The notes under the pieces: generated by a model
The model's database searches: none
Seen by the model: the letters and a program-made list of their open reading frames with translations, nothing else
Told to the model about the DNA's origin: nothing
Shown: piece after piece, positions 29,960-54,146 of the stretch
How positions within the stretch are numbered: the stretch's first letter is position 1
Layout: every line of letters starts with the position of its first letter
Made by a program: the position numbers and the translations under genes
Origin: Alloascoidea hylecoeti
Lineage: Eukaryota
Length of the DNA: 64,000 nt
Assembly (NCBI GenBank): GCA_001600815.1
Contig: BCKZ01000021.1
Location: 248,001-312,000, forward strand
Reading direction: 5' to 3'

Positions 29960-30035
<76 letters not shown>

Positions 30036-30942: not shown

Positions 30943-31682
30943 CAATTATTTAATTAATTGGGTGTAATTATCACTGTAATACCACTCTGATCATGAATTG
31001 AAAATTTACATTTAAATTTAAATTTATGATGCTATTCTATTTAACTTCGTCCAATTAGTGGACTAAATATTCGGTCACTTACTGACCCAGATAATCGGCC
31101 ATGTGGTAACTAAGTATTAAATTTGCTGTCGATCTTCCACTTTCTACCGAATATTTAATGCCATACACGTCACAGAGCTCTTTAAATTTCTGTCATTGTT
31201 TCGATAATTTATCTCCACAGTAACGAAACATTTTGGTGTAGTTGCTGAAATTAACCGTAAACTAAGTTATTTAGTAAAAGATTGTCTGGAAACAAAAAAA
31301 TACATTTGCCAATAAGTTTATTCACAATTTCACACACGGGAACCAATATACATATTAAATATACTTAGCTTTGCTAATCTTAATATTAATTTTAAATAAT
31401 ACAAATGTTGGCGCGCAAGTGCTGTAATAACAAAGCTTTATAATTAGAATTTCCTCGAATTCGGTTAACGTTAATTAGTTTGTGTAAGTGTGTAAGCCTA
31501 TATCCAATTGCAATTTTAAGGAAATATACGTATAAAGCTTTTATGGAAATTATAAATTTAATTATAAATATTAAATGAAATTCTATCATGAGACCATAAC
31601 CAATTCAAAAGGGAAAAAAAGCAAAGTTAAGCCACTATAGTATACATGTACCAGAACAAATCATTGAACAAAACCTCCCTTA

Positions 31683-34600: not shown

Positions 34601-35906
34601 ATGGTGAAAGAGAAGTTGTGGCGGTTATGATATACATCAATCCTGATTCATTATTTGTATTTGTAGCCCAAATTACACTCTCAAAACTATCTTTATCTTC
34701 TTTAATTATTCTTTGAAACTCTTCGTAATCTGCATTTTCAATACTTTTGAAAAAATCTTGATTTTTCTTTGATATATCCAATAAATGATTTAATTGTGCA
34801 GAATCTTTTAGATGATATAAAACACCTTCAATAGTTGACATTATATAGCCTAATTTACCGGATTCCGGTGAGTTGAATGAAAAGTTATTAATATATAATA
34901 AATGATGCGGTAAATTTTTAACCTGTGAACGTAATATAACAAATAGCATTAAACCTACTAATACATCGGCATTTATTGTTAATTCACACTCAGGTTCATT
35001 TGTTGTTAGGATCTCCATTGTTTTTAAAAGTATATCTTCTCTTTTTTGGGTAGAATCACATTCTTCTAGTTTACTAAATTCTTTTATGGATCTTGATACT
35101 TGTTTATGTAACTTATTGAATTGATTTGGTGCCATACGAGGCAACGAAACTTGATTTAGTGAAATATTTGATAGAATAGTTTGATCAGTCGAGGATAAAA
35201 AAAAGAGTTCTTTATAATTATTTGGATGAAATGACAATATGTGTGCCCATAATCTATCACCTACCTTCTCTTCTATATATCCATGTAATAGTTTCTCGAT
35301 ATCCTCACCAGTTAGATCGGTTTCGGCCACCAGCTGTTTAAGTAAAGGGTCACTCAATTGCATAAATATATTGACTGCTTGGACCTTTAATGCCTTGAAA
35401 CTTTCGATTACTTCCGATGGCGATTGGCAAGATTTCACTGAGTAAGAATTGAACAAGTCTCTGAATGAAGGACCGATAGAGGCTGAAATTAGTGGGTACA
35501 TCTTCATGACATCATGGAATTGTAATGATGAGCTACCACTGTCGCTTCTACTATGAATATCAAGCTTGAGGTTCATTTCTTCACTAACATTATTCTTGAT
35601 TGGTCCTGTTTGTACAACTAACCATAATCTGCCATCTTCATCCCAAAGACATTTATGATCTAGAATTTTAGAAGTGCCCGAGCCTGGGACTGTAATCAAA
35701 TCTCCTGTAAATGTGACAGTGTTTCCATCTGAAGTTATGAATCGTTTTCCTTGCCGCACTGGGCCTTCATTCGATTTGCTGGTAGAAGTGGGAATAACAT
35801 GGATGGGTGAAGATAATGTAGTTTCTTGTTGGGATATGAATGGGAATGGTAGTAAAACGATGAGGGGACTTTGTGGGTGAAGATCCAGCTCCGATATGAC
35901 GTCCAT
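31683..35906 (-). CDS. VRL1: VPS9-domain / ankyrin-repeat / PX-like Rab GEF (UPF0507, VARP-like)
   Basis: VPS9 core INADVLVGLMLFVILRS..L..HL.YI.NF....GKLGY..ST.EG; ankyrin-like KDANGQTPLFAICRCYDH and LTSLM.WAKYGR; PX-like TVYRSLEDF.FL..LL. Confidence 0.85.
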   Translation of the reverse strand: MDVISELDLHPQSPLIVLLPFPFISQQETTLSSPIHVIPTSTSKSNEGPVRQGKRFITSDGNTVTFTGDLITVPGSGTSKILDHKCLWDEDGRLWLVVQTGPIKNNVSEEMNLKLDIHSRSDSGSSSLQFHDVMKMYPLISASIGPSFRDLFNSYSVKSCQSPSEVIESFKALKVQAVNIFMQLSDPLLKQLVAETDLTGEDIEKLLHGYIEEKVGDRLWAHILSFHPNNYKELFFLSSTDQTILSNISLNQVSLPRMAPNQFNKLHKQVSRSIKEFSKLEECDSTQKREDILLKTMEILTTNEPECELTINADVLVGLMLFVILRSQVKNLPHHLLYINNFSFNSPESGKLGYIMSTIEGVLYHLKDSAQLNHLLDISKKNQDFFKSIENADYEEFQRIIKEDKDSFESVIWATNTNNESGLMYIITATTSLSPFNEDLRVQMFTDLLELNGSDFAISDTGINDVTLLSAALQTSPSYSTSEVPSESGSSSNSSDSSDYTVNDKIILILLKFLYSYLTPSQLTSFLCVPDIYHRTAPHYLFNNYKLIPQISPYINWKVKDANGQTPLFAICRCYDHSQYDTVVEVAMKSCAEWYYHLENHHSSITSNKSTVSSHGLRTILLSDHIDNKHNTLLHILTTPKTISLIYKYGKFLNVNSGNEKNLTSLMVWAKYGREEVIRELCHNSHIYASAQQHPKLHSEHHGSSEFGKKFNTNSSFRYDDIEFSLLNNKGQTAADLAKDKTLKIMLDELRLFKEIGMFHVNKQYKDEKVGKEKEFIVGVVRYLYIRDEAKFVIKTGLINEVIEDHDKKDAKGKSKGKVCQIFTVYRSLEDFEFLANLLQFEFPNSGVPSIFPQPFPSSMNKSSKGQPNTKTNSNTTSNSNSTLSAAERLRLNPDLYDIQSKSIPQANTLDNSNYISSEQVYPKFSFKHDNMSLPLKFHQKLNHEIIYLLNQFLWTLLSLPKIQQHELLWEFLLVPDINKPQCISRSNLKVKSLLEDKKIVNEAIWSEKRKLEDIQLMQGYVDYPNDIKTMEGFLKHLELELSMVKTVLGKCFRISLQIMNVERDKLRPSIQLLNETIHGIAFARNGNLIDKENENLFQVLENAYSDKCHPDSQTLANFLLTLTDFTQIVYNKLSAPIKYQIPQFWKIWNRQVLIEKELIKLDDKMSKGNRKLTVNENGYITGDNMDTRSINGSIIEHHMYADTSTSCLSDDNNSIDSPRRVIKQTSLSSMSASSLPPPPTNGFFNFVDSRTRRMNRQRKLLVERDELLTRKLHLETQLHDLHEGLAIDVGDYYKAKEVLLKEAITRHVREQIKLFKYRKGILEEGLAVARSARNEKKRYTEVTFLETVIRPVDHEHDSESISLDEDGYQSEDEREAPGASESLNRRNSNPKKLQEDQNNVTNFNNS

Positions 35907-36278
35907 TACCTCTTATAAATATTTGGTATCTGCTAATAATATGGTGATGATTGAGTGTTTGGTGGTTTCAAAAGAATTATATTATTATATCTTCAAAATC
36001 TGTAAGTCTACAACAATCAACCTTTTTTTTATCTAATCCAATAACCATTGATAAATTTCACGGTTGAGTTCCAGAACACGATCCCTTATTTACTAATCAC
36101 TAACTAATTAAACATACATTATTATTTCTTTTAAGAAATATGGTACCAAATAAAATGTACCTTCATACCAATTTCTTACTTTATAAGGCGTACCATTCAG
36201 AAACACTAAGCAATGTAGCATTTTGGTTCACACATGCTGGACTCATTAATATCATCTGTTTGAGGCTCTACAGAAATT

Positions 36279-36352
36279 GGGCGTCTGGTGTAGTTGGTTA
36301 TCACATTCGCTTAGCATGCGAGAGGTCCCCGGTTCGATTCCGGTGTCGTCCA
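36279..36352 (+). tRNA. tRNA-Ala(AGC)
   Basis: Cloverleaf with acceptor GGGCGTC/GTCGTCC-A and G3:U70, anticodon arm TTCGC-TTAGCAT-GCGAG, T arm CCGG-TTCGATT-CCGG, followed by a T-rich terminator. Confidence 0.97.
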
Positions 36353-36374
36353 TTTATCTTTTGTTTTTTATTAC

Positions 36375-36875
36375 GGAATTAATAAAAAAAAAAGGTGGAG
36401 AATCCTTCAAAAAATCAATAATAAAAAACAAGGTGATGTCGATTTCCTACATAGACTAAGTTTAAGAAATTATACCCATCACTAGACTCACATATTCAAT
36501 CAATGTAGAATAAACCCAATAATTATATTATATATTACATTTTATGGGAAAAGATTATCAACTAAATGAAATGATTTGTGATTCTACAAGAAACACAAAT
36601 GAATCAATTCAAATCAACAGTATAGGAGAAGCAATTAGAAATCTGAGAAACAAAAAAATATTCGAAATAACAACATTAGAATCGACAGACAAAGAACTTT
36701 TGACTGCAGTGAAAGCTGACATATACTTATGATCATACAAACTTATGGCATATTCTTAAATATCAAAGTCAAACAAAAAATCAACTTATGATAAATAAGC
36801 AAATAACACAACAGCAATATTAGCTATAAATTAAATAGTATAATAAAATATTAATAGTTAAAAAAATAAAAAAGC
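36375..36875 (+). mobile_element. 5'-truncated non-LTR retrotransposon (L1/Zorro/Ylli-like) ORF2 3' end with A-rich tail
   Basis: Broken frames give RWRILQKIN..DVDFLHRLSLRNYTHH*, HIFNQC, GKDYQLNEMIC..INSIGEAIRNLRN..FEIT, homologous to 54270-54650. A-rich tail at ~36860-36873. Confidence 0.68.
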
Positions 36876-36889
36876 AAAGTTAAATTTTT

Positions 36890-38300
36890 ATTGCTTTCCC
36901 TTCTGGTTTCTTTTTAACTACTTGGAAAATAAGACGATTGACAACTTCAAAGAGCAAATGAAATCGCAAGGAAAAACAGTAAAAATATTTTAACAGGGGT
37001 GACCAATTGGTCGCTTTTGCAGGACCTGACGCGTCAAAAATAATCAAAACAATGAATTCTTAGTCACTTGTTTAAGTGCTCACTATGGAAGAATCAATCC
37101 CTTGTTAAAAGTGGCAGTACTTACTACCGATACTCCCATCCATATTGCCGATGTGGAGAGAGAATTATCCTAAACAATTGGTTATCTTGCTATTCATTTA
37201 TGATACGGATAATCTTTCTTAGATCGTAAAAGCCCCAACTACATCTTAGTTGAAGTCCCCGAAAAGAGCACCATCGTACCGAAGGTAATAAATTTGAAGG
37301 TCCCACTTGAAGTATATGGGACAACTACTGTTTTTGTTGAACACTCTTTTCGTCTTCAGGTCAAAACCAATAGAAAGCTGTGTTGCATCCACTGCAATTC
37401 CCTTTCCCATGGAAAAACGAGTTGTCATCAGCAAACTATTGCTAAGCCTACTGGTAATCATTTGTCTACGGATCTTACCCGTGCAAGATCCGGAAAGGAA
37501 CGAGCCTCTAATCCACATCTCATAGTTTTACAAAAGGACATTAATGGGAATAATGAATTCATTGTTCCTAAGAAAACAGCTCGCAATGTTGCTCAAACAT
37601 TACATCCTGATACTGCAATCAATTCCTCTTTGAAAACGAATCCTTTTGACGTCCTCCAACAACTGATGTGAACTGATCCACCTCCGCAGACCTTGTATAA
37701 TCACCTTGAACTTGCATCTCCGAATAGAAACTCAGCCCCTCCTAAAAAGGCAAAAATCAAAAATCTAATGTGTCAAGGCCCTCTACACCCATTGAGGATG
37801 TTGATGCCATGGATATTACTGAATCGGAGGCTGAAGAGTCTTTGAATAGTGAATCTTCCGATTCTTCTGATAATTAAGATGTTGCAGTTGTACCAGAATT
37901 GGCATTAGATGCTACCCAATTGAGCATGACCTCACAAGTAAGATTACCATAACCCTAACGACATTGATGATGTTAATGCGAAGGACATTACAGATTCCGA
38001 AGCTGAAGGGTATCATGATAGCTATTCATTGGACCCAGATTTTGTATCAGATCTTCTTTCTGATAATGAGGATACTGCTGTGCAGTCATGGGTGTAGACG
38101 ACAATATCCTATTGAAGGAAGCATAAATAAACCAAAAAGAAAACCAAGTGATTAATATTACTGAAATACCTGAGAGGTTATTAGTATCCCCCGACAATAA
38201 TCCTGGCATTTCCAGACTTCTCCCTTCACGCAATAATCAGCATTCAAGCACGTAACTATAAATTCGGGAATCGTTAATTCCCGTAAACCAACCAAAACAC
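36890..38300 (+). mobile_element. Degenerate retroelement ORF1/gag-like relic
   Basis: Perfect CX2CX4HX4C zinc knuckle (CIHCNSLSHGKTSC, 37384-37425) followed by TNPFDVL, embedded in frames broken by stops. Boundaries are approximate. Confidence 0.6.
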
Positions 38301-38971
38301 TTGTTTATATTACATAATTAACATCCAAAAAGGTTATGATACGAAACACACCTTTTCAGGCAAAAACTCCTAGGAAAACCTCCATAGGATCACTTATTCT
38401 TGTAAACTGTTGCTTCTTCATAAAACACACTCTACCATATTTTTTTATATTTCGATTATGTAAAATCTTAACGTTCTAACGGAGATGATTTTGCTTCTTC
38501 TGGTTTATTCTTTGTGTGATGCTTTGGTTTCATCTTCGTTTTAGAGTTACTTGTATTGCGATCCTCATTTTCATTTTCATTATTGTCAAGATTATCTATG
38601 TCCATCGCTTGATCATCAGTCCGATAATTATCTGACTGTCATCACAATAGAGAATTCATCCGTTGATACATTTTCAGAATATTCGTCAATCTCTGCTCCT
38701 GATTCTGTAATGTTCATATTGTTTTTTTTCTTTTATTTTGTAGTATTTCGCTTGATTTCTCATTTGTAATTTCTTTTATTGAGGGACCTGCTTTATCTGG
38801 AACATTGTATACTTACTAAGAGCATTTCAATTTTCCATGGGATAATGCATTACATTTTACGCAGTAATTCTTACCTTTCAACATATAAAGGTAGTACTCT
38901 ATCTGAAAACAATCATGCCAACACCATGAATAAAGAAATAGATACCCTACCGATACTCGTCGATTGGAACG

Positions 38972-39230
38972 AAAAAAACAGTCGCAGACTATTCCAAGGC
39001 CAGCCACACCATAACACAGAGGATGACACCCGTCTTCGCAGTCAAACGGTAGGAGTTCTCTGCTGGATTGCTCCCCTGAAGAATATCTCCTGTACTTATG
39101 GCTCAAAGCTCTACAGATTACTCGTATAGAAACTAAGTGCCCACCGCCAGACTCGAACCGGACACCTCACGTGATGAGCACAGCTTAACACAGGCAAGTT
39201 GATCCACTTCCGCCACACGCCATTACAGCG
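38972..39230 (-). ncRNA. SCR1: Signal recognition particle RNA (7SL/scR1), copy A
   Basis: 5' CGCTGTAATGGC fungal Alu motif, B box GGTTCGAGTC, helix 6 with GTAA tetraloop, helix 8 CAGGGGAGCAATCCAGCAG (SRP54 site), ending in T7. Confidence 0.9.
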
Positions 39231-39500
39231 AAGGGTTCTGCGGTGCTCTTGACCACATTTGTTTTCCATTTTTCAGAATTTCACTATAGAGAGATTTGCT
39301 CAGAATTTACATAGTTTCTAGTTATATGATTTAATTGGAAAATATATGAAAAGTTAAAAAAAACTCAGTTAAATATTTTCTAGTTAGAAATTTTATTAGT
39401 AAAGACTTAAAAAATATGCCACATATAAAGTTTATATCAGATGAAAAAGAAGACACTAATATGATGGAAGTAAAATTGTAAAATTATATAAATAATTAAA

Positions 39501-42500
39501 TTAAAAAAACAACTCAATAAACTCATTCCAATTGAGCACTTCGTATTTCGGTGTGAAGCTGATACTGAATAATCGATTTTTTATCATCATCATATCTACC
39601 ACTTCTGTATCTGTATTTAACACAATATTCTTTTGAACAGCTAGTCTCATAATCTTTAACTGTTTTTCTACTGGCATAACATTTTCATTGGTTCGGGTTA
39701 TTTGAGATTCTACACATTTATTCAATTTTTCATGAAGTTCTGAGTCCGTTGTGAATAGCCTCAAGTCTCCCTTTGTCAAATCTCCCAAATACCATGATGT
39801 GCTTCTGCGTTGATTGCATAATAATGCATTTCCTTGATCTAGTAGTTTTATGTATCGATTTGCTATTAATTTTCTCTTGAGTTCAGAATTCAACCAAATC
39901 CCAAAACTGGTGTCAACTTTAACAGAGATCATTAGTATATCTTTCAATTCTAATGGATTGTGAATTGCTTCTGAAATACCCTCTATACTTTCTTTATTGA
40001 TGGTAAATGGGATGGATGAGAAGGCGGTTAAGTCATTCATCTTTTTTTCATAAATAGTCGTATAACCATATCGATAATTAGAATTTATGTCTACTTCCGT
40101 CGAATTTCTTTCAAAAATATCTGTATTCATGTTTGATTGAACATGTGTTGTTAAACTCATATTTAAACCTTTGGTGAGACTATCAGAATCCAGCAATGGG
40201 TTTATACCTTGTTTGTCCCTCTTTTTCAATTCATCTACTACATTTTTATCGACTTTTAAATTAAGATAGACTTCAGGAGAAGTTCTATTCAGTCTTTTGA
40301 TCGCATCAATTTCTTCGTCCATTATATCATTATCTAAATATTCTGAGAGATCGTCAGATGTTAGCTGATGTATGTGTAATATCCCACTTTTATCAATTTC
40401 AACTTTGGAATTTTCTTCGCGTATTGTAGATGTAAAATTTGAATATTCATACTTCAGCTCATATAATACATTATCTAGACAAATAGGGGTCTCGGGGATA
40501 TTATCGATTCTGTTATAAGTATTTGTAACTAATGTTGAAGATGATTCATAAATAAATCTGGGGTGTATTAATCTAATACAATCATATTCTCTCACCATTT
40601 TGTTTGGAATGAACTCAGTTCTCGTGGTTGAAGGTTCTGTTCCCTTTTTATCTGTGAGAATTCTTTCCACCCTATTATATAGTTGAACTACATCATTCAG
40701 TTTTCCATTTCTCAGCCCCTTTACTTCGGTGTTGATTCTATTTTCATGGCGTAATAAATGCTTGAATATATCCACATCATTAGAGTCTGAATTAATATAA
40801 CTAGTTTTAGGGAGGAGACCAAGAGTAACAGATAATGCATTATCTTTATTTAAGTCAGTATACCTTAGTTCTTTCATCTGGAACCTTTTTTCTAATGTTT
40901 TCTTTTGAACGAGCTTCATTTTATAAAGTTTCTGATAGTTAGGATTCAACATTTCTTCTAGGTGTCTTGTGTCACTATTTAATGTTCTTATGAACACTTC
41001 ATATGATTCAGCAGTAACATTACCTCGGGATTCTTCTGGAATATTCAAACGACTAAGTGTACGAGATTCTCGTGTATAAGTATTGGTAAAGGTTTTCGAA
41101 AATTTCTTGTCATCTGATATATTCAGACTGTTTAATGTCTTATTATAAATATTAGCTTTGAATCTTTGAAATAACGATCCAACTGAAGTGCTCATATATT
41201 CTGCTCTGAATTTACGTGAATTTCCTTTCAAAATTGTTTCGAATTTAAACAATATTTCCTTATCTTCCCTAATACCATGTTTTGTATAGACTGGTGGTAC
41301 TCCTGATCTAAGTGTATCATCCTTGGGATATCCAACATCGGAGAACGAGAGATTCCATTTCCTGAGAAATCCAAGATAATTAAACAGAACAATTTGTTTG
41401 GCTGCATGATGAGCACACCCACTGTTCGTTGAAGTGTGATATAAATTGATCACATCGTTATAATCTTGAAACATATTTCCACTTGTCGTAGAATTAATCA
41501 AACGGTTTACGAATTTAATTTCATTGGACCCAATACCATCTATAGATAAAAATTCTGAGTTAAATTCAACAAAATTGTTTGAAATAATGTTTTTGTATTC
41601 TGAAGTTTTAATTCCAAAATATATCAAGTAGTTTCCAATATTATGTAGGAATTTATCGATTTCCATTAGACTCAATCTTATATGGTATTCAATATTGAAA
41701 TTTGTTGTTGGCCGTAGGAGATTACATTGAATAAACAATGCTGCATCATCTGAGGTTAACATACTATCAACATTTATATTCACCATGTTCAGACTTCTAT
41801 CAAGATTTGTTATTTTAGAGTATACTACTTCCTTCAAGTCTCCCAGATAGGACTTAGTTGTCAATGCATGAAACATTGAACTTGTGTAATGAAATATGCC
41901 TTGTCCCATATGAAATCTCCCAATTTTCCCTGGTAAAGAATATCCACACTCAACTCGGTCATAGAGCTCCACGTTAAAAGGATGAACTTCAAATATCTTA
42001 TATTCGGATAATAGACATACTATCGCAGGAATAAACGCCTCTGTTGTATATCTTGACATCGTTGCTAACATTAATGAAAAGCACGCAGTAGACAGATTAG
42101 CACACCATTTTGTTTGATCCATTGTTAGCATTCTGCAATGAGCTGAATCTAAGGATTTATCAAATTTGCTACAAAAGTCTTTGAGCTTATCAGGTGAGTC
42201 TAAGTATTCGTTTCCGATATGCTTATTAACCTTCTTTGAGAAATGTTCAGCTACAAATTGTATTACCCTATATTCAGATGATAAAATTGAAACATCTCTG
42301 TTCCCCCCAGTCTGTGGCTTATTCATCATTCTCATTGTAATATCAATTGGTCCGGATTTTGATAGAATCTTATATACAAGTAATGGAAGATGTGATGTTC
42401 CATATAATTGACAAAGTACTTGAACAGAATCTGCACATATGGTTGTTTTCCCTTCAAAAGTATCTGTACTTGCTTTAGTAGTCAACAGATCGGTTATATT

Positions 42501-44897
42501 TATTGGCGTATAAGTCGTTTTAGAAATTTTAAAAACATCTGCAATCGCTTTCTTAATCTCAGAATATATTAAGATAATAGATAAAGGACACATGGTGAAT
42601 CGTTGATCCGTGAGCTTGGAAACGTGATCAACTTGATCAAAATATCTCCTATAGAAAGATATTAATGATTCGCCTCGATTTAGAGTGGTTATCCGGTTCT
42701 GAAAGGTGTCGAAAAGATCTCTTTTAATAACATCAAAATAGTCATTGAACATGTCCAACTCATCATATAAATCTGATAAAGAATCTCTCAAATGTTTTAA
42801 CTCTCCAAATGTTTGCGTTGGACAAAGATTAACCAGAAATGCTTCCCAACCAATGTGTTTGAATTCTAGACCCAATAATGGCGTTACTCCCATTTGCTCG
42901 GCATCCACTTTCAGCATATCAAGTATTAACCGAAGACTTAGCTTCTTGCAATGTTTACTTTTAATACTTCCTATGAATTTATCCTTCTGCTGTTTCAGTA
43001 ATGGTGATTTAACTAGATAACCAGTGACAAAATACCTCCATGGTTTCAAAACTTCAGATAAGCCCCAAGAATTTTCATTTAATATCCTTCCGTATAGACT
43101 GGTAAGGCCTTTTATAACGGATAAAATTGTTGGCTTTGGATATTTTCCAGCTTTAGTGAGGTTTAAATATACTGTGCTTATAAGTGCTACCAAGACATCT
43201 GGAGCTTTAAGAAAGGCTTCAATATGTGATTGTTTCCATATTCTGGTACATATTAGATTATTTTCTTCGAAAAATGATATTAAAACGTCACCCCAACCCT
43301 TTTGAACGACTTGACCTCTAATCATCACTTCAGCGTGTTTATTCGAATCCCTCCAGTGCAAGACTTTAAATGGGGTTTTGCTAGCCTTGACATCCAAGAT
43401 TGCAACAGCCACTCTTGAATTCATTCGCAGATCAGAATATTCTCTGGAGTTCTCTAATATTGTGACAATATCTGTGAGATCATCCTTTTCCAAAAGTGCA
43501 TAATGATTCGGATCTATTTTGTATCTAACGGAAGTCCCAGATTCTCTTTCTAACAGTTTACCACGATGGGGGCTACATGAGACAAACCGTGAAACATCAG
43601 GACTTTCGACATTTCCAGGTACAATATTATCAAAAGTAGATCTCCAACGAAAACGAAAATTACTTCGTTTGAGTCTGTCAAATGTATATTTCTTTATTAC
43701 GCGATCTTTTATTTTAGTCTTGATGAATTCATCTATTTTGAAAACTGATTGGTAGTTATTTTCCCTTCCAACATCAGGTTCTTTTATATCCATATATGTA
43801 TTATGATGGATTCGCATCCTGTATAAGCTTGAGGTAGCTTGGGATTTCCTTTCACAGCCGGGAACTTCTAGCTTATACGTTTCCTTGTCTAGTTCAATCT
43901 TTGTTTTGAAAGCTATTGAATCCATTCCCTCATAAACAAATTTAGTTTTATCATATTTTTTTTCTTGAAATAAATAATAGTCCGTTTCATAGAATTTCTC
44001 TTCTTGTGATGGTTCATTTGCGTAAGTAACTTTAATTTTTTCTGAAAGTTCTTTAATTAACTCATATCTCATGTTTTTCAATTCATAGTCATTTAAACTA
44101 GAGTTTAACTCACTTCTAATTTCAGCATTGACTATTCTTTCTCTAAAAACTTGGTGCGCAACAGATGAGTGAAAGTCTATTGTATTTCCATCTCGATCAG
44201 TTCCTGTCTTTCCTGAGAAGAAATCAAACATCTCTTTGGTAACCAAGTCTTTCTTTGAGTTAGAATTTAATAGACTATTCTTTTGGAGGTCTCTTTTCTT
44301 AAAACAATCATCCGAATTCATAGTATCTTCTATAGTGGACCAATGATGAATCAAGCTTTGATCAGTATCACTAACTGTTAAGAATTCATATTTCCAAATT
44401 GAAATCCTTGTCATCCCTTGAGGTGCAGGATCAATATCTTTTGGGTCTAGTTTGACAGATGATACATTAAAAAGAACTCTAGATTTTCCACTTTCAGTTG
44501 TAAAAAGTAAATCTGCTGCTGGTACATTTTCTGGTTGATATGCAGCTTTCCCATCTTTGATTGAAAGGATTAAACTCAGACATACGAGTTGGTGTAGCAT
44601 ATGAGAAGCAGATATGGACCCAAAATGAGTAGAAGTAGTGCATGAATAAATCTCTTCGGCTGTTTTCTTGAAAGTTCTAGGATCTGATACCAGTGGAATT
44701 GGCTCTAAAATAGGTGATGAACACGTTCCTATAGCTCTTTGAGATTGAATATCAAGATCACCATGTATAATGGTTTGAATAAAGACTGTATTGTCATCAT
44801 CCGATATAATTTGCAGTGACCCTTGAAGTGTGGAATTGGCTGTTTTGTTAAACGATTTTTTATATTTATTTGGTAATTCAATATCTCTGAAGCTCAT
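39501..44897 (-). CDS. Endogenous viral element: full-length L protein (RdRp) of a segmented negative-strand RNA virus (Bunyaviricetes-like)
   Basis: 1798-aa intronless ORF with motifs in canonical order: pre-A/F KPQTGGNRDVSI (~42290-42325), A DQTKW (42105-42119), B HMGQGIFHYTSS (~41877-41912), C TSDD (~41745-41756), D GIKTSEYK, E FVEFNSEF (~41550-41575). Confidence 0.93.
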   Translation of the reverse strand: MSFRDIELPNKYKKSFNKTANSTLQGSLQIISDDDNTVFIQTIIHGDLDIQSQRAIGTCSSPILEPIPLVSDPRTFKKTAEEIYSCTTSTHFGSISASHMLHQLVCLSLILSIKDGKAAYQPENVPAADLLFTTESGKSRVLFNVSSVKLDPKDIDPAPQGMTRISIWKYEFLTVSDTDQSLIHHWSTIEDTMNSDDCFKKRDLQKNSLLNSNSKKDLVTKEMFDFFSGKTGTDRDGNTIDFHSSVAHQVFRERIVNAEIRSELNSSLNDYELKNMRYELIKELSEKIKVTYANEPSQEEKFYETDYYLFQEKKYDKTKFVYEGMDSIAFKTKIELDKETYKLEVPGCERKSQATSSLYRMRIHHNTYMDIKEPDVGRENNYQSVFKIDEFIKTKIKDRVIKKYTFDRLKRSNFRFRWRSTFDNIVPGNVESPDVSRFVSCSPHRGKLLERESGTSVRYKIDPNHYALLEKDDLTDIVTILENSREYSDLRMNSRVAVAILDVKASKTPFKVLHWRDSNKHAEVMIRGQVVQKGWGDVLISFFEENNLICTRIWKQSHIEAFLKAPDVLVALISTVYLNLTKAGKYPKPTILSVIKGLTSLYGRILNENSWGLSEVLKPWRYFVTGYLVKSPLLKQQKDKFIGSIKSKHCKKLSLRLILDMLKVDAEQMGVTPLLGLEFKHIGWEAFLVNLCPTQTFGELKHLRDSLSDLYDELDMFNDYFDVIKRDLFDTFQNRITTLNRGESLISFYRRYFDQVDHVSKLTDQRFTMCPLSIILIYSEIKKAIADVFKISKTTYTPINITDLLTTKASTDTFEGKTTICADSVQVLCQLYGTSHLPLLVYKILSKSGPIDITMRMMNKPQTGGNRDVSILSSEYRVIQFVAEHFSKKVNKHIGNEYLDSPDKLKDFCSKFDKSLDSAHCRMLTMDQTKWCANLSTACFSLMLATMSRYTTEAFIPAIVCLLSEYKIFEVHPFNVELYDRVECGYSLPGKIGRFHMGQGIFHYTSSMFHALTTKSYLGDLKEVVYSKITNLDRSLNMVNINVDSMLTSDDAALFIQCNLLRPTTNFNIEYHIRLSLMEIDKFLHNIGNYLIYFGIKTSEYKNIISNNFVEFNSEFLSIDGIGSNEIKFVNRLINSTTSGNMFQDYNDVINLYHTSTNSGCAHHAAKQIVLFNYLGFLRKWNLSFSDVGYPKDDTLRSGVPPVYTKHGIREDKEILFKFETILKGNSRKFRAEYMSTSVGSLFQRFKANIYNKTLNSLNISDDKKFSKTFTNTYTRESRTLSRLNIPEESRGNVTAESYEVFIRTLNSDTRHLEEMLNPNYQKLYKMKLVQKKTLEKRFQMKELRYTDLNKDNALSVTLGLLPKTSYINSDSNDVDIFKHLLRHENRINTEVKGLRNGKLNDVVQLYNRVERILTDKKGTEPSTTRTEFIPNKMVREYDCIRLIHPRFIYESSSTLVTNTYNRIDNIPETPICLDNVLYELKYEYSNFTSTIREENSKVEIDKSGILHIHQLTSDDLSEYLDNDIMDEEIDAIKRLNRTSPEVYLNLKVDKNVVDELKKRDKQGINPLLDSDSLTKGLNMSLTTHVQSNMNTDIFERNSTEVDINSNYRYGYTTIYEKKMNDLTAFSSIPFTINKESIEGISEAIHNPLELKDILMISVKVDTSFGIWLNSELKRKLIANRYIKLLDQGNALLCNQRRSTSWYLGDLTKGDLRLFTTDSELHEKLNKCVESQITRTNENVMPVEKQLKIMRLAVQKNIVLNTDTEVVDMMMIKNRLFSISFTPKYEVLNWNEFIELFF

Positions 44898-47642
44898 TTA
44901 TGATAATTGGATTTTATGTAATTGTGAAACCACGTAAGTATCAAATTGAAAAATATTTATGAAGACAATGCAATAATATACCCTACCAATTAATGCTAAT
45001 TAGGGTTTAGTTTTGTAATTAGTGTTCCAATTCTACTCTTATATCGATGAAGACTTGAAAACTTAAAGAGTTAGTTAAATAATATTGGAAACTTTTTCCC
45101 AGAAGTATCTTACATAGGAGCTGTATTTCAAATAGCTTAATAAAATAATGAGAAATAGCTATGGATATTTAAAAAATGAGTGCGGAATCTTTTGTTTAAA
45201 TAGTATATTCAGCAAACTAATTTGGCTCTTGCAGTATCAATTGCATTTGCTCATATCTACAGTGTAGATAAATACCAAATGAAAACTTTTAATCAATCAT
45301 TTATCTAGCTTATCACTGTAAATATGACTCCAATCAGTGAAGGATATGGTTGTCCAATTGGGTACATAACCTCTCTTTCTCCTTAATTCCTACCAGGTTT
45401 GATATCTGTAAATCACAATTTCAGCAACATTAATCATTTAACAGTTTTCAGAGTATATCCAAAGTTCTCTTCTCTGTGACTAAAGGCATTTCAATTGGAT
45501 TCCATTTAAATATCAAAAATATCGGTGTTTTTAAATAACGCGTAGGTTACAGGTACTTTATTTAGCGCCCAATTCAACTATCGATTATTTAATATATTAT
45601 GATATGTCTAAAAAGCTACAATATGTTATATATAGCTAATGGTTGGAACTAAATAGTACTATATAATAGTATATTTCCTATTCTAAGATCTAAATAAATT
45701 TAAAGGAATAATTTACTCTCCGAATTCGTGTTACATTCGGTGTGTGTAGGTGTTTCGGACCAGGATGTAACTAAAAGTTCGGTGTCAGTGTGATACACTT
45801 TTCGCTATTTTGTTTAAGTTCATCCCACATTCGAGTTAGAATTCGTTAGAAATTTTGGTGGCAGTAGTTTAAAGGAATGATCGTCACCCACATATTTCCC
45901 TCCAATTGCCATACCGAATTCAGATTCGAAATATTGTATGAAGATAATCTAATGGTACAGTGTACTTTCTAAGGAATTACATGTAATTAGTTAATCAAGT
46001 TATAATACTGAGTCTGACGCGTAGTTCGAATTCGTTGATTATCATTAAATATAATTAAGAAGAGAATATCATATAAAGTGTAATATAATTAAGTTCTAAA
46101 ATATTGTTAATCAATGCTTCCTTCCCAATCCATGTCTTTCAATCATTTCTTTTTGGAGGTGAGATTTGGGACCATTAAGAGTTAGAATGTTTCTGGAATT
46201 TTCCAGTCGAGTGACTTTTGATTTCACTTTGTTCGTTATATCTTATATTAGAGATTTAGCTATATCTAGTCTCATCAGATGTAAAAATTATTATATTGAA
46301 GTTTCTAGCCAAGTGTCTTTTGAATTTGCTTTGCCCAGTATAGATGGATTTATGAGTACTAGTTTTTTTTCTGGACCTCTTTGGGGTATAATGATTTTAT
46401 CCATAAGTTATATCTTACAGCCTTCAGAATATGTTAGTTGAAAATATTCAGCTTCTCTGTCTTCGGCACTGGATTTTTCTGTGTATTTTTCCCAGAAGAA
46501 ATAGGACTAGATTTCGCCATATTGATTTCATCCGTAAAACATTCCACACTTTCGCCAACAACGTCAAAGAAATATGCTTTATGACACCATTTTAAAGCAT
46601 CCGTATAATGTACTTCTAGACAATACTGCCCTTTTGGTGAAAGATTATGGGGACTGCTCTTATTTATAGATTACTCTACCGATGATAAAAGTGAAATCGA
46701 TTTATTAATGTTGCACAGCTTTATAAATATTTTAATGCTTTTGTATTCTCTTAATTTGTATGACGAACTCTCTTCCCTAACCTATTTTAGGACCGAAAGA
46801 TGTCATAGGACGGTTGGAGATATATTTCATCAACTAATACAATGCTATTAATAACTGTCGTTGTAAAGTTATTTTCCAATCTCGAATAAAATAAATGCAA
46901 TATCAGTTTTAGCTAGAAGAAAAAAAATTGCTCACCCTTTGCCACCCAAGAAGCGAACCATTCTCAGTAGATATTGGTGTATATTCATACATGTAACGCA
47001 TATGGGGACGATATCTACGTTAATTATGGGACCAGCTCCAAAAACGAGCTAAGTGTCACCCAAGAAACTAATTTTTTGGTTTCCAACATGCCGCAAATGC
47101 ACACCCTAATACGACAATATTCACTCGAATATGGCGAATTAGGAGCGAAAAAGCTGTACTTACACTACTCAAAATCATACTATACAAATTAAACAAGTCC
47201 TAATAACAATTGCAGTTGCATAATTCTCAAAAGCTAGGGTAATAATAAGACTAAAAATTAAATTTCAAAGTTCAAAAATTCTAATTTGTCTTCCATTTCC
47301 AATTTCAACTCTGATTAAAGAAATAAAATAGAATATAAACAATTAGTAATTAAGAGCACAATATTAAAAAACATAATAAGATAGATTAGGTAAAGTTAGC
47401 CAATAGACTTTTTTCCTATATTCCCAAAAACAATAATGACAAAAGAACTCCAAATAAAAAATTAAGTGTGAATGTGGGCATATGAACATTTAGAAAATAG
47501 AAATAGAGACTTCGAGTTTCATCATTGAATTATTCCCTAATTTTCTCTTTTTATTATTATATACAATTTAACTGTATCAACAAGATATATCCAAGAAGAA
47601 ATTCCAAGTTTTCTCACTGGTGTCATAACCAATACTAGGCTC

Positions 47643-49778
47643 TCAGTTTTCTTTATTATTTTCTAAATTTGTTTGAGTATTATTAGTATTAGCATTAGCA
47701 TTAGAATTAGAATTAATATTATTATTGGAATCATCATGTTGAGTATCATCATGTGATGAATTATCATTATCAATAGGTCCTAAATCATGATTTCTAATAA
47801 ATAATGTGCAAATTATTGCAGGTACACATAATATAGTACCAGTGATACATAATACTTTTTGAACATGCTTATAAGCATTAACTACCAGTTGTCTTTCTGT
47901 TGTTTCCCAAGTATATTTTTCAATAAAAGAAAAAGGTGAATCATAAGCAAATTGTCTAAGTGAATCCGGTAAACGTTTTGATATTTGTCTTGGTAATAGT
48001 TCTGTCCAAATTGCACCAGTTATTGCACTACCAAAAGCAGCACCAATATTAAAAGATGCTAAATAGATTGGTACAACAGTATGTAATTTATCAGGATCTG
48101 ATGAAACCTGAATTGATGCTTGTGCTGGATATGTAAATAAACCTGCTGCAAAACCTAAGAAACATAACGCACCAATTATACCTGAATGAGAATGTTCACT
48201 ACCACGAAATAACACTAACAATCCCATTGATGTAATCCAACAAAATGAACCAAAAGTAATAATTGGTTTCACATTTTTAACTTTTGTAATCATTAAACTT
48301 ATGAATGTACCAACTAAAACAGAAACAAAGGAATATAATGAAACAATTCGAGTTGCCGATTTAACTGATTCATGAACAGATATAACAAGAACAGTATACA
48401 TATAATCACCTTGCATATACCAAACAAGATTTAAAGACATTGCAATAATTAAAGCAGCCCAAATTCCTCTATTTCGAATTAAGTGAGATGTTACAATTGG
48501 ATAATCTGTACCAAACGTTTCCCATAATATAAACACTGGAACACAACATCCACCAACTACCAAAGGTGCAATTGTACTTGCTGAACTCCATGATCTTATT
48601 ATTCCACCTGATATAGTTAAAGGTACTAAGATTAAAATTTGTATTGCTGCTGCTAAAATTGTACCAATTGGATCTAAAGTGACTATAAATTTGACGACTT
48701 TGTTGATAGAGTGAAGATTCAAATTAGTGTTATTATTAATATTATTTTCATCTTTATTTTTATCAGCTGCATTTTTCCCTTTCTCATTTAAATTTATATG
48801 GTTATCTTGTTTATAATTTTGTTGATCCTTCAATGTTTTCCACTGATCAGTTTTAACTGCTTTGTATCGCATATGTAACAGGCATATAAGCAAAGGAATC
48901 GACATAACAGGCATTATAATTGCCCACATTCCAATACCCCATGACCATTTATCTCCTCCTAAAGCTTGGGCAATATCACCACCAATCCAAGTATTTACAA
49001 CAAACGGAATAGCTGGAACAAAATAACAAAATAGATTTGAATTAACACAAGTTAAATCTCCGATTAATAATTGTAAAGTTAATAGTAAACCTGTGTAACC
49101 GATTTGAAATAAAGTAGCACCGCCAGCGTAAGTTGAAACATTATTCGATTGAGATTCTACGAGGGTTCCGATTGAATAAAACAAAATGGATATGATTAAC
49201 ATTTCATGTCTTGGTAATTTTTCTTCCAATCTAGCCATCATTGGATGTATAGCGGCAGATACAGAACCATTTATCACATTAATTGTAGCTAATAATGAAT
49301 GTCTTGCAAAAGAGTTTGTAGCATAGGCTTGATAAACATTTCTTATTGTTAAATCCAATCCATAACTAAAAGTAACCAAAAATATACAAAAATATACAAA
49401 TGCTTGACCGATAGTTCCATATTGATTTGCGATTATCCGAACTTCCGTTTCAGGAAATTCATACCGATAATTATTGTCGCCTCTATCTTCATCCTCGTGA
49501 TGATGGTGGTGATGATGATGATGATGTTGTTGTGATGAGCCATTTGAATTGATATTATTGATATTAATATTATTCGTATGATAGGACAAACCACTATTGA
49601 TATGGTCTATTGAACTAAGAGAAGTTTCCAAATCTCCTTGTCGGGACTGAGTGTCGACGGAATTTTGAGACGGGACCAGATCATCAAAACTGATAGAATA
49701 CCGATCGCGGGATCGAGGTTGACTTGAGATGATGTCCAAGCCCGGGACCCCTACAGCATCCTGTGGCGAAAGGTTCAT
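47643..49778 (-). CDS. Siderophore-iron MFS transporter (ARN/SIT1 family)
   Basis: YGLD.TIR.VYQAYAT.SF..HSLL.T.NV, PF..NTWIGG, WSWGIGMWAII.P, W.MQGDY.YTVL, Y.SPF.FI..Y.W.T.ER..VV.AY..VQ..LCI.G. Confidence 0.92.
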   Translation of the reverse strand: MNLSPQDAVGVPGLDIISSQPRSRDRYSISFDDLVPSQNSVDTQSRQGDLETSLSSIDHINSGLSYHTNNININNINSNGSSQQHHHHHHHHHHEDEDRGDNNYRYEFPETEVRIIANQYGTIGQAFVYFCIFLVTFSYGLDLTIRNVYQAYATNSFARHSLLATINVINGSVSAAIHPMMARLEEKLPRHEMLIISILFYSIGTLVESQSNNVSTYAGGATLFQIGYTGLLLTLQLLIGDLTCVNSNLFCYFVPAIPFVVNTWIGGDIAQALGGDKWSWGIGMWAIIMPVMSIPLLICLLHMRYKAVKTDQWKTLKDQQNYKQDNHINLNEKGKNAADKNKDENNINNNTNLNLHSINKVVKFIVTLDPIGTILAAAIQILILVPLTISGGIIRSWSSASTIAPLVVGGCCVPVFILWETFGTDYPIVTSHLIRNRGIWAALIIAMSLNLVWYMQGDYMYTVLVISVHESVKSATRIVSLYSFVSVLVGTFISLMITKVKNVKPIITFGSFCWITSMGLLVLFRGSEHSHSGIIGALCFLGFAAGLFTYPAQASIQVSSDPDKLHTVVPIYLASFNIGAAFGSAITGAIWTELLPRQISKRLPDSLRQFAYDSPFSFIEKYTWETTERQLVVNAYKHVQKVLCITGTILCVPAIICTLFIRNHDLGPIDNDNSSHDDTQHDDSNNNINSNSNANANTNNTQTNLENNKEN

Positions 49779-52739
49779 AACACACGCGATCTACAAGTGA
49801 GGAGGTTAGAAAAAGACTCAGATAAAAGCAATCGATTATCTTGCTTCTGCAAGTATTTGATTAAGGATAAATGAATAAGCGATGTATGTTTCATGGTTTA
49901 TCATCCAATTAGGAATATAGCATCCTATATTGAGCCAGATTCAGCCGTATCTGGAGGTAAAGGATCAGATGTAATTTATAAAAAGGGGTAGTTTTCACCC
50001 AATTCGTAAATAAAGGTGAGTCATGCATGCGTGAAATCCTATTTCAATCCCGATTATCCCAATAATTTTAAAATTCTTAATCTTATAATTGCGTTCATTT
50101 CATTCATTTTCGAGCTTAAGTAGAGAAATGGTTAACTAGTGAAGAGGATAGCCGATCATTCTTAATCAGCAAGGTCGAATATTTAATTCAAAATGTAATC
50201 GCAATCAAGTGGATTCCATGACAAGATATTATGGTATGTTGGGCATGGTAAAGATTTGATGGAACAGAATATTAATGATCATATTATTTCCCAGACAAGA
50301 AAGACTACTACATTCATCATTCTATCATTCACTAAACAAGATTAGTGATAACAATAATTTTATCATTTCCCTGAACAGGACCTAGCGATAGCCGTAATCT
50401 TATCATCCCACAAACAGCACTAGTTATAACAATCAATATGTGCCAATACCCCTATGAGTGAACCTTCAATTTTTTTCAATGTATAATGATCAATTTATAT
50501 AAATGGACATGATTCTTTTTTGCGATTAGTTGAACTACCATAGAAAGCTCTTTCCTAGTTAGAATCTACTTATTTGATTCACATAAAGTTGATGATGTTT
50601 TTGTTAGGTTGCTAGAATCTGATGACATGGCAAATCTTAACGACTGACCTTTTTGGTGTAGTGGACGACAATCTCTATTGGTTATTACGTCACTCAAACC
50701 ATTTTACAAATTCACTACATATTGAACAGGTAGGATACCATGCTAAGCATTGCTCCAACAGGTATGATTACACCCTAGCTTATGAGAATTTAGATATTAT
50801 GAAATCTACCATATATTGGGGAATTATGGCCAAGTCAATGGCACTGAACTTGGTTACAGAGTAGATAATTTCAATTGAAGTCGATGGATACTACAACATG
50901 AGTTATGTGACGAGAATTTTGAATCTAATATATATATATGCATTTAATTTGAAGGGAAATTAACATTAAGTAGTAGCACCAACAGTTTCAATTTTAGTGA
51001 TAGCTGAGCATGAACTTTGACTAGTATTTTATTTCAGACAAATTACCGGAATATGAAATTTAAACAGTTTCAACTTTTCAAGTGCTGATCAGGAAAAAAT
51101 GCATAATTAACTAGGATATGTGGTACCCCTATAACTAATAGACACCCTATTGGCCTCGTTCTTTCCTCCGCATGGTTTCATTTGATTGTTTAATATTATT
51201 GAAAAGGAATTTAAAGGATCATAAAATTCATAATATTAAAAAAAAAAATGCTTTCGATTCCGCTTTGTAAGCCGTAGCTGCCATACGATATGTCAAGGTT
51301 TCTCGGATTATTTCAAAACTTGTTCCAAACTCTAATATCCAGCTCTAAATTCTCTAATTCTCGTTGTTGTTATATTTATGGACCCAGCATTCTATAGAGA
51401 TAACTTCAAAATTACACACAGGTCAGCTGAACATGCTTGCTCTTGAAGTAAAGTTAAAGTTCGTAAGGAGAAACTATGGGTCATCCTAGTTGTCTTTTTC
51501 GGTACATATAAAATTTGGTCAGGACGAGGTATGATCACCTCAAAGTCTTTAATCGATAAGCAAATTTGCTTAAATGATCCCCTAGCACTTCTACAAAACG
51601 AATGGTTATCATAAAGTAAGTTTCCTGTTCTGGGGTTCATACTTTATTAGAATGAATGGTTCTTAATATGGCCATTTGAATTTCCAAGGATGTGATTGAC
51701 TGATTGATGGTAGTAATTTGATAATATTCGATACATATTTTGTATCGTAGAGATAGGGCTGTAAAATGTGTTAAAGGAAAGGGAAGGATATGTGTGATGG
51801 TGTAAGCATGATATATCTTCAATGATCGATCCCGGTAAATTGAAAGTTGTTATGGATCTAGATATATTTTTACGCTTACACTGTACATGTTGCTTCTCTA
51901 AGAAGACAGAAACTCTATAATGGATGAAAATATGACATTAAGGTCGTAAGAAATGTAAACAGTAAACTCATTACGGCCGTTTGGCAGTAAAATATCCGCT
52001 CTAAAAACATCTTTGGTGTCCGATTATATTACTTTATCCGAGTACTATAGGCAGTTGAAGCCTTGAAGGTATAACTATTGGCGCCAGTACCTTAACTTGA
52101 TAAATCTGGTATCAATATCTATAATGATAGGATTATAATATTAATCTATAGGCCTATATAGCTATAGACCTTAAGTCCATAATACTCCATAGATTCGAGC
52201 CACTAATATTGCAGATATTACAATATTAATGTTTGTTTAGAAATTCCATGAATAATTACGTAATACGTATAACGGGAACATTTTAATTACCACTTTGAGA
52301 ACAGGGTTTCATTGGGGATGTCAGAACTTAAAAGTTTTATGAACGCTAACTATAAGTTCCAATTGCAAACTGTCACCTGTGATAGACTTATTTTAAATTT
52401 GTAATTACAATTGCAAACATTTTTTAATTCGATAAATATCTATCCCTTGATCTATTTCTTTTATTGAAGTGGAGATTACAATATTTACAATACTCCAGTT
52501 TAGAACTCAATTAAATTTAAATTCAGATTAATTAATTATATAAATATTATTGAGAAAACTAAAAACTTTAATTCAGAGAACAAATGCATAAAAATAAAAT
52601 AAAACAAATACAGAGGTAGATAGGAAATTTAATTAATTATTTTCTATTTTAAAATTTCATTAATCATATTTTCATTGTTATTAAGTGAATATTATTAATT
52701 ATAATTAATTTATTTTGTTTACTATATCTATTAATAGAT

Positions 52740-53378: not shown

Positions 53379-53888
53379 GTTTAAAGATGTGAAAACGAGA
53401 GTAGAGGCTCAGCGAATAGTTCAAGTATTAGGGATATAAAAAATCTGAAAGAAAAAAAAATAAAGGAGGCTTGGAGGATTTAAATACAAATATATACGCC
53501 TGGAATTCTGGAGAAGAGAAAGGAAGAAATAATAATTTCGGCAGTTTTGCAGGTTTTCTTCCTGTGACCGCCACGATCTTCTGGGTGCTCATTTGTCCTG
53601 GTAGTAATTGCTAGCTAATATGGTTACTGCATGCATCTTCTTGGCATTTGCAGGCGTAATATCCACTGCGGAGCTGTTAAAATGGCTATTTCCCTCCATA
53701 AGTCTATAAATAGTTACAAATATGACCTGTCTCCTAGCTAATCATACTATAATAGTGCTTTGTTGCATCGATTAATAATTGAAATTTGAATTTATTATAA
53801 TTAATTTTTCATCAAGAATGCCGCTGTTGGATGAAAGGAAAATGGAGACAGGAAAAACAAGTGTGTTCAAGAGCACCGCAGAACCCTT

Positions 53889-54146
53889 CGCTGTAATGGC
53901 GTGTGGCGGAAGTGGATCAACTTGCCTGTGTTAAGCTGTCCTCATCACGTGAGGTGTCCGGTTCGAGTCTGGCGGTGGGCACTTAGTTTCTACACGAGTA
54001 ATCTGTAGAGCTTTGAGCCATAAGTACAGGAGATATTCTTCAGGGGAGCAATCCAGCAGAGAACTCCTACCGTTTGACTGCGAAGACGGGTGTCATCCTC
54101 TGTGTTATGGTGTGGCTGGCCTTGGAGTAGTCTGCGACTGTTTTTT
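53889..54146 (+). ncRNA. SCR1: Signal recognition particle RNA (7SL/scR1), copy B
   Basis: Same motifs as copy A, with three substitutions counted by eye; ends in T6. Confidence 0.9.

Follow-up and report, generated by a model that had tools for sequence, protein, structure and literature searches.

The stretch of DNA discussed here (the window) covers 64,000 nucleotides of a contig of the yeast Alloascoidea hylecoeti, and harbors on its minus strand, at 39501..44897, a single open reading frame (ORF) whose translation, termed P0001, is a bunyavirus-type L polymerase. The ORF begins with ATG and runs in one frame through 1798 codons plus a stop, as determined by the ORF finder, and it is open under the standard code as well. 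A frame of this length is excluded as a product of chance, since 200 shuffles of its bases gave a longest open frame of 95 aa on average and never above 167 aa. P0001 displays KPQTGGNRD (residues 860-868), DQTKW (927-931), HMGQGIFHYTSS (996-1007), TSDD (1048-1051), and EFNSEF (1111-1116) in this order, so that the intact frame with five motifs in canonical order, which an earlier note had described from the letters alone, is borne out by the ORF finder and the translation.

The ORF is accompanied by ordinary fungal genes, including those for a TRAPPC10-like protein, HEM4, two MFS transporters, an M28 peptidase, an amidase, and a VPS9-domain protein, and the G+C content is ~0.32 over the ORF and its neighbours alike. 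The 5' end of a signal recognition particle (SRP) RNA gene is located 270 bp past the ORF stop codon on the same strand. P0001 is already deposited in public protein sets (NCBI, Logan origin) as a nameless entry; a word-index protein search with P0001 gave 0 matches, its cluster being represented by a 41-aa piece, and tblastn against phage records left it unmatched. The coordinates of the features are collected in Table 1.

Table 1. The L-type ORF, its regions, and the genes and repeats around it (positions in the window)
Feature	Position	Strand	Remark
L (RNA-dependent RNA polymerase) ORF, complete, bunya-like	39501..44897	-	1798 codons plus stop
N-terminal endonuclease-like domain, residues 74-193	44319..44678	-	H102, D129, K169 kept in alignments
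Asn144 codon, acidic column of H..PD..(D/E)xT..K motif	44466..44468	-	D/E in relatives
Polymerase core motifs pre-A to E, residues 860-1116	41550..42320	-	invariant residues; aligned to RVFV and SFTSV L
C-terminal region, residues 1329-1797	39507..40913	-	profile of 18 relatives, E 5.3e-33
Fungal SRP RNA gene (Pol III type)	38974..39231	-	Rfam RF01502, 96.6 bits; same strand as ORF
Second SRP RNA gene, inverted partner (302 nt, 97%)	53888..54145	+	Rfam and repeat comparison
Short high-copy dispersed repeat between SRP RNA gene and ORF	39290..39363	.	contig depth
Non-coding stretch, 2.7 kb, ORF start to MFS gene	44898..47642	.	spanned by single contigs
Host MFS transporter gene, physically linked to ORF	47643..49778	-	gene call and contigs
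VPS9-domain gene	31683-35906		host gene flanking ORF
MIP1 (mitochondrial DNA polymerase)	55345-59181		host gene flanking ORF
tRNA-Ala(AGC)	36278..36353	+	dispersed repeat adjoins at ~36420-36720

The encoded polymerase and its virus clade

The motifs pre-A (KxQxGGxR), A (DxxKW), B (QGxxxxxSS), C (SDD), D (Lys), and E (ExxSE) are all found in P0001 between residues 860 and 1116, where they are aligned to the same motifs in the L proteins of Rift Valley fever virus (RVFV) and severe fever with thrombocytopenia syndrome virus (SFTSV). Over the family alignments of 32 and of 39 rows, the residues K860, Q862, R867, D927, W931, H996, M997, G1000, S1006, S1049, D1050, D1051, K1102, and N1113 are invariant. 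When P0001 was compared with PDB sequences by phmmer, L proteins of phenuiviruses took the six best places at E 0.016-0.22, their motifs pre-A, A, B, C, and E being aligned in register with those of P0001, and the sole other row was a MazG-like protein at E 1.2. A profile constructed from P0001 and 31 relatives retrieved six phenuivirus L chains from the PDB (E 1e-14 to 4.8e-13), no other chain reaching E <= 0.01.

The predicted structure led to the same kind of protein. An AlphaFold model of residues 1-1200, computed with the 39-row alignment, reached a predicted local distance difference test (pLDDT) score of 83.7 and a predicted template modelling (pTM) score of 0.84. In a Foldseek search of the PDB with this model, all 47 matches listed were bunyaviral L proteins (E 3e-19 to 3e-14; query-normalised TM 0.38-0.51; 825-1463 columns), their sources including Hantaan, La Crosse, SFTSV, Rift Valley fever, Sin Nombre, Lassa, Crimean-Congo, tomato spotted wilt, and Machupo viruses. 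In a library of predicted viral structures, the top matches were Beihai barnacle virus 6 (4.2e-32), Kristianstad virus (3.8e-29; 34% identity to P0001 in one piece), and Beihai blue swimmer crab virus 2, and the best rows of a language-model look-up were all clusters of negative-strand virus polymerases. Moreover, a C-terminal profile built from the last 450 residues of 18 relatives, P0001 being left out, matched P0001 at 1329-1797 with E 5.3e-33 over profile positions 4-432 of 437 (429 positions), and the N-terminus of P0001 can be aligned with the relatives from Met1. Homology thus extends from residue 1 to 1797, and the frame is therefore the viral L frame throughout, with no host fusion.

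Pfam assigned 0 families to P0001 at E <= 0.01 and still 0 at E <= 10, including PF04196 (Bunya_RdRp) and L_protein_N, a result which would suit a cellular or DNA-element polymerase that merely resembles L or is the ancestor of such viruses. Of the 17 relatives scanned for Bunya_RdRp, however, three (P0005, P0022, and P0030) pass the cut-off, two fall below it, and twelve are unmatched, so that the tie of P0001 to this family is only transitive. Four remoter matches of ~2,200-2,700 aa are all plain Bunya_RdRp proteins, and L_protein_N was detected in three of these four outgroup proteins versus none of the 17 relatives and not in P0001. The relatives above the cut-off speak against a cellular polymerase, as do the structural matches listed, all of which are viral L proteins and none cellular, and the location of P0001 deep in a clade of 47 other rows (L-segment-sized contigs or virus names) rooted with 10 phenui-like L proteins; this explanation is regarded as extremely improbable. 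The earlier note had proposed a full-length RNA-dependent RNA polymerase (RdRp) from a segmented negative-strand virus with all core catalytic residues kept. The PDB profile matches and the Foldseek matches listed agree with the class, the C-terminal profile match confirms the full length, and no catalytic residue is lost from the polymerase core. Profile searches and a tree of the polymerase core, checks of the kind that it had suggested, gave a viral protein, with no cellular structural match among those listed. Its likening to nairo-, arena-, or phenui-type L proteins holds in part: phenuiviruses are the nearest solved structures, whereas the nearest relatives belong to an unclassified clade with L segments of ~5.3 kb.

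In the N-terminal region, the family bears the pattern H..PD..(D/E)xT..K, of which P0001 keeps H102, D129, and K169. At the acidic column, P0001 has Asn144, versus Asp or Glu in 30 of 31 aligned relatives and in all 18 translated viral contigs (48/49 altogether); the sole exception is P0016 (Beihai blue swimmer crab virus 2), in which Gln is present and PD is replaced by PH too. By VIA, residues 74-193 scored Z 4.1-4.7 to orthomyxovirus PA endonucleases, which is weak and below the trust level of the tool, and Z 3.5 to the N-terminal domain of a reptarenavirus L, several restriction-endonuclease-like folds being matched also, while Foldseek gave no match for the N-terminal domain at E <= 0.001. 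The domain is termed a putative cap-snatching-type nuclease on the motif and the weak fold scores (Z <= 4.7), a basis that counts against the explanation favoured below.

The relatives were collected by an exhaustive HMMER search with residues 500-1500 of P0001 against 1.84 billion representatives, which yielded 78 at E <= 1e-3 and 50 at E <= 1e-30, the best being 31-37% identical and mostly 1,640-1,900 aa in length. The closest free relative is 36% identical, or 44% on trimmed core columns. Of the relatives with a contig on record, 14 of 16 are encoded on contigs of 5,214-5,702 nt, the exceptions having 6,584 and 9,942 nt; two of the proteins are oversized, P0045 with 3,280 aa (9.9-kb contig) and P0012 with 2,003 aa (6.6-kb contig). 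Loci encoding relatives numbered 52 in a viral contig collection and 16 in a metagenome collection, none longer than 5,687 nt. Complementary ends were found at the very tips of 5 of 21 full-length contigs (L019, L053, L004, L056, and L012, four of them distinct as L004 equals L056), and the other 16 probably lack true ends. On account of their size, their names, and the viral collection, the relatives are taken for RNA genomes. Two of them are publicly named, P0016 being the polymerase of Beihai blue swimmer crab virus 2 and P0034 the L protein of Bat faecal associated bunyavirus 7, and barnacle, crab, mosquito, bat faeces, fly frass, and environmental RNA are the sole sources of the clade.

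A quick maximum-likelihood tree was inferred from 58 rows and 574 kept core columns, with 48 family rows (>= 1,290 aa) and 10 phenui-like outgroup rows; P0027, P0029, P0037, P0043, P0048, P0050, and P0052 were left out, and named reference viruses of recognised families are absent from it. P0001 is sister to P0002 (SH-aLRT 86) and then joins P0003 (93), deep within the family. The branch between the 48-row family and the 10 phenui-like rows amounts to 1.96 changes per column. P0001 does not appear as a member of the Phenuiviridae: it is placed outside the phenui-like rows, in a tree built without named reference phenuiviruses, and has no L_protein_N. By its place among the aligned sequences, P0001 is nested within a group of apparently exogenous viruses, which have no DNA stage. 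As a separate observation, ~87 residues of the pre-motif A region of the family, 43% identical, occur at L068:2555-3043 amid unrelated sequence (3.8-kb contig, genome-style accession, G+C 0.43), a piece that looks like a fragmentary endogenous copy in another organism.

The ORF as part of the chromosome

The read data came from four runs of three studies, in each of which 0.93-0.97 of the words sampled from window 38700-45400 are present. A single sample of the yeast accounts for two runs (2016), another sample and study of this yeast for the third (2023), and a wood-decay metagenome for the fourth (2020). Of the four runs, two may be the window's own source. The contigs of these runs were placed on window 31000-50000. 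A contig of 9090 nt from run X1 matches 39334-48423 with 0 differences and spans the complete ORF, the 2.7-kb non-coding stretch, and also the first 780 nt of the MFS gene; a contig from X2, the wood-decay metagenome, covers 39334-47476; and a contig of 4749 nt from X4, which represents a different sample and study, covers 43675-48423 and leads from the ORF interior into the MFS gene. The depth over the ORF was 61.5, 9.1, and 8.3 in the three studies, versus ~61, ~11, and 7.3 over the VPS9 gene region. This host-level depth and the contigs from the ORF to the MFS gene therefore exclude a contaminating RNA virus or loose complementary DNA (cDNA).

The junction on the other side, 3' of the ORF towards the SRP RNA gene (39265-39334), is bridged by no contig of the four runs: contigs end at 39265 and resume at 39334, and this gap counts against the integration. 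Between these points lies a short repeat (~39290-39363), which occurs in 31 contigs with a summed depth of ~600x single copy in each of the three data sets; its other copies are followed by an A-rich stretch, and no second copy was found within the window. In addition, the SRP RNA gene is duplicated in an inverted repeat of 302 nt, 97% alike (38973-39274 and 53845-54146, 14.6 kb apart), between whose copies the L ORF, the MFS gene, and a Ser/Thr-rich ORF are situated. The 3' junction is unbridged because the high-copy repeat and the duplicated SRP RNA gene break short-read contigs.

The open junction, together with the two runs that may have furnished the window itself, is what could be said for an assembly artefact, namely a viral cDNA or RNA contig from an infected culture that was misjoined to a yeast chromosome. 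Against this, single contigs of X1 and X4 pass from the ORF across the 2.7-kb non-coding stretch into the MFS gene, that of X2 reaching 47476; the ORF is as deep as the flanking host genes in three studies, where a replicating RNA virus would not show the depth of single-copy DNA; and the break at 39290-39363 is explained by the repeat and the duplicated gene. Such an artefact is very unlikely. The ORF is, almost certainly, an integrated viral copy and single-copy chromosomal DNA. The location in a yeast chromosome asserted by the earlier note accordingly stands on the equal depth and on the contigs into the MFS gene, with the 3' junction still unbridged, and the host genes that it saw on both sides are there (the VPS9-domain gene on one, the MFS transporter and MIP1 on the other).

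Several further observations were made elsewhere in the window. The window contains another very long ORF (1500-6839, minus strand; 1779 aa), which is unmatched in Pfam and not related to that for L; in the fragments listed, it appears acidic and of low complexity. The first 960 nt form a block of ~60% G+C versus ~30% elsewhere in the window, within which an ubiquitin-like ORF (1-558, minus strand) is found; the switch in G+C falls inside an ORF for a GNAT acetyltransferase (680-1360), whose codon usage correlates with that of other host genes at only r 0.21. A 217-aa ORF at 29489-30142 (-) carries a homeodomain-like domain, HTH_32, at 33.9 bits (cut-off 33.7) and may be the remnant of a Tc1/mariner-type transposase, a kind recently described in wood-associated yeasts in the available part of PMC13756089. 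Two direct repeat families (250 nt, 82%; 198 nt, 84%) with a spacing of 1.7-1.9 kb are present at 21903-24452, in a 7-kb stretch without long ORFs.

Insertion and fate of the frame

RNA virus sequences reach DNA via the reverse transcriptase of retroelements, and the regions upstream of Pol III genes are landing zones of yeast long terminal repeat (LTR) retrotransposons. The L-segment RNA of an unclassified bunya-like negative-strand virus was presumably copied by the reverse transcriptase of a host retroelement, and the cDNA would then have been inserted into a Pol III-upstream region, the landing area of yeast LTR elements. A tRNA-Ala gene with an adjoining dispersed repeat lies 3 kb beyond the SRP RNA gene. 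What speaks against this route is that an LTR pair, a terminal inverted repeat, and a target duplication were looked for around the ORF and none was found, and that a retroelement domain is absent by Pfam from 15 stop-to-stop pieces of the flanks; because of these negatives, the mechanism of insertion is a matter of inference only. Likewise, no poly(A) follows the ORF stop codon.

The relics of transposable elements which the earlier note had seen nearby were found only in part, since no flank piece has a Pfam match and read depth does reveal dispersed repeats in the vicinity. Two such repeats beside the tRNA-Ala gene, at 36420-36720 and 37021-37134, occur in 3-8 contigs with raised depth and may be solo LTR remains. 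Two strings resembling CCHC zinc knuckles were spotted by eye in opposite orientation, at 37384-37416 and 38831-38863, in the open pieces 37213-37671 (+) and 38816-39166 (-); they may be gag relics, with no Pfam match. The adjacent SRP RNA gene was considered as a retrocopy from the same event and rejected, as the two copies are alike from ~40 nt upstream of the RNA start to the T-run, as is the case with two functional genes.

The persistence of the frame bears on its fate. Of the single substitutions possible in the ORF, 5.4% create a stop, and the frame would survive with a probability of 50% after 12-19 substitutions and of 5% after 54-84 (1.0-1.55% of sites), indels being uncounted. With so short a half-life, the copy is either very young or kept open by selection, and the earlier note was right to pose the alternative of a recent capture or a co-opted RdRp. 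Given integration, it appears slightly likelier than even, on comparison of the sequences, that selection maintains the open frame as a host gene. The same integrated copy could instead be young and neutral, captured less than ~1% of neutral divergence ago, without function and due to decay, with its odd residues already present in the donor RNA, which was perhaps a defective or lineage-specific variant; this is a serious contender, although somewhat short of an even chance, and the half-life of 12-19 substitutions leaves a real window for such a fresh insertion.

Evidence that bears on this choice comes from conserved columns, for which agreement among >= 90% of the other rows was required. 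P0001 deviates at 13 of 87 such columns in the alignment of 32 rows (its closest relatives at 0-4), at 8 of 75 in the family alignment of 48 rows, and at 16 of 116 in the core clade of 27 rows, which is the top count of that clade. Among the 26 other rows of the core clade, the departures rise with the length of the end branch (r 0.86), and for the end branch of P0001 (0.63) 5.7 departures are predicted and 16 observed, which corresponds to +4.8 residual standard deviations, the largest excess elsewhere being 4.7 columns. Among the changes are E868D and I869V next to pre-motif A, together with R930K, G932C, and P933A around motif A. As many as 66 random substitutions would place at most ~4 within the 116 conserved codons. 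The ~ten extra changes are therefore not neutral decay after insertion, since the frame would not have survived it; either the donor had them already when it was captured, or they were acquired afterwards, while selection maintained the open frame and constraints shifted.

A young neutral copy would require a donor which was already 4.8 standard deviations beyond the branch-length prediction at family-conserved columns and which lacked the acidic residue kept in 48/49 relatives, and this would be odd for a replicating virus. No close free relative of such a donor exists among the 1.84 billion representatives, where the best stands at 36% (44% on the trimmed core). Furthermore, a snapshot would be likelier to catch a long-lived selected copy than a brief window. 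Taken as a whole, the best explanation, to which about an even chance is given, may be that the ORF is an endogenous viral element (EVE), a DNA copy of the whole L frame, kept by selection as a host gene. Such a gene would have preserved the polymerase core, altered the site of the cap-snatching-type nuclease, and shifted its constraints at family-conserved sites, and its likely role would be interference with related viruses, for example by a polymerase that binds their RNA or nucleoprotein unproductively.

Several findings weigh against retention by selection. P0001 and its free sister P0002 have end branches of equal length (0.63 each), and this equality argues against a long residence, since a copy evolving at host mutation rates should lag; it suits a young neutral copy. 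The departures may predate capture, given that P0017 (5.2-kb contig) and P0034 (no contig on record), on longer branches, reach 15. Across the ORF, three data sets show no difference in the pieces listed, a point in favour of a young copy, and they offer no usable polymorphism. No RNA run is among the runs that contain the stretch, so the young copy faces no positive sign of expression. A run of a related species (X9, organism B) was matched, at 80% likeness, by short pieces only, namely tRNA and a handful of 36-50-nt fragments, and is uninformative on presence there. The codon usage of the ORF correlates with that of host genes at r 0.94, host genes among themselves at 0.71-0.98, and it cannot date the insertion because AT-rich free relatives reach 0.90.

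The genetic code was also considered. A reading of CTG as Ser by the host was rejected, as host CTG codons stand in Leu-like contexts; a homologue search with a host protein for this purpose returned the query itself only. The 19 CTG codons of the ORF fall mostly at Leu or hydrophobic columns, position 804 being Leu in 30 of 31 relatives, and the standard code was assumed because of these Leu-like contexts in host genes and ORF.

A bolder form of retention by selection may also be considered, although it is thought unlikely: the yeast would keep a catalytically working bunya-type polymerase with the cap-snatching nuclease off, which copies cytoplasmic RNAs or blocks relatives of the donor virus. 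The copied RNAs could be leftover small viral segments without a polymerase gene of their own, or templates for silencing; the yeast lineage is not known to have a cellular RdRP. If leftover segments were indeed copied, part of an RNA virus genome would have moved to the nucleus with the rest still an RNA replicon.

Comparison with known systems

The ORF is a non-retroviral EVE, and thus of a known kind, but it stands out by its yeast host, by being complete, and by hinting at shifted constraint. A full-text search of the published literature brought up neither a bunya-like element nor a negative-strand RNA virus of budding yeast, and budding yeasts are not known to host any negative-strand RNA virus. 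The integrated copy points to the infection of yeasts by such bunya-like viruses and is direct evidence of past replication in the yeast germ line. The true hosts of the orphan clade may be yeasts or other fungi living with the sampled animals. In experiments, the yeast version would be tractable, deletion, tagging, expression, and polymerase assays being routine.

[quoted passage not shown] The L proteins of the clade have ~1,650-1,900 aa on segments of ~5.2-5.7 kb and hold all motifs in common with P0001, and P0016 is included in the core clade of the tree. The members of the clade are RNA sequences from animal-associated or environmental samples with the host unproven, whereas P0001 is DNA in a yeast chromosome, with 31-37% identity to the best of its relatives and with Asn at the acidic column. 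In the accessible portion of the black soldier fly virus paper (PMC10460066), Kristianstad virus and Beihai barnacle virus 6 are given as taxonomically uncharacterized bunyaviruses, and a further relative, from larvae and frass, is described as having a 5,696-nt L segment plus an S-segment candidate of 853 nt.

The L proteins of the Phenuiviridae (RVFV, 7eei and 9qtb; SFTSV, 6l42, 7alp, and 8as6) are the nearest solved structures by profile (E 1e-14), and P0001 has the overall L fold in common with them. An N-terminal motif of the type H..PD..ExT..K would be common to them and the family of P0001. The differences are that phenuivirus L is ~300 residues longer than P0001, that a branch of 1.96 changes leads to the phenui-like rows, and that Pfam L_protein_N and Bunya_RdRp match the phenui-like outgroup and not P0001. 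The form H..PD..ExT..K is that of the phenuiviruses.

With respect to endogenous polymerases, one comparable example emerged from the literature search, the endogenous bornavirus-like L element eEBLL-1 of Eptesicus bats. As far as the available sections of PMC4865735 describe it, eEBLL-1 has an intact frame of 1,718 codons with conserved RdRp motifs, its orthologues have been kept for > 11.8 My, selection has been measured, and transcripts have been detected. On this partial account, eEBLL-1 and P0001 are alike in being a complete polymerase gene of a negative-strand virus in a host chromosome with an intact frame (1,718 versus 1,798 codons) and RdRp motifs. They differ in that eEBLL-1 comes from a non-segmented mononegavirus and resides in a mammal, whereas P0001 comes from a segmented bunya-like source and resides in a yeast.

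In yeasts, the counterparts are genes derived from totiviruses, which were reportedly treated by Taylor and Bruenn in 2009 as well. Among these, the STORM array is presented, in the part of PMC13756089 at hand, as totivirus-derived genes of yeasts. To the extent covered there, such genes resemble P0001 as genes of non-retroviral RNA viruses fixed in budding-yeast chromosomes with open frames, but they stem from double-stranded RNA totiviruses, encode a capsid or a capsid-RdRp fusion, and often form arrays, whereas P0001 is a single polymerase gene of a negative-strand virus.

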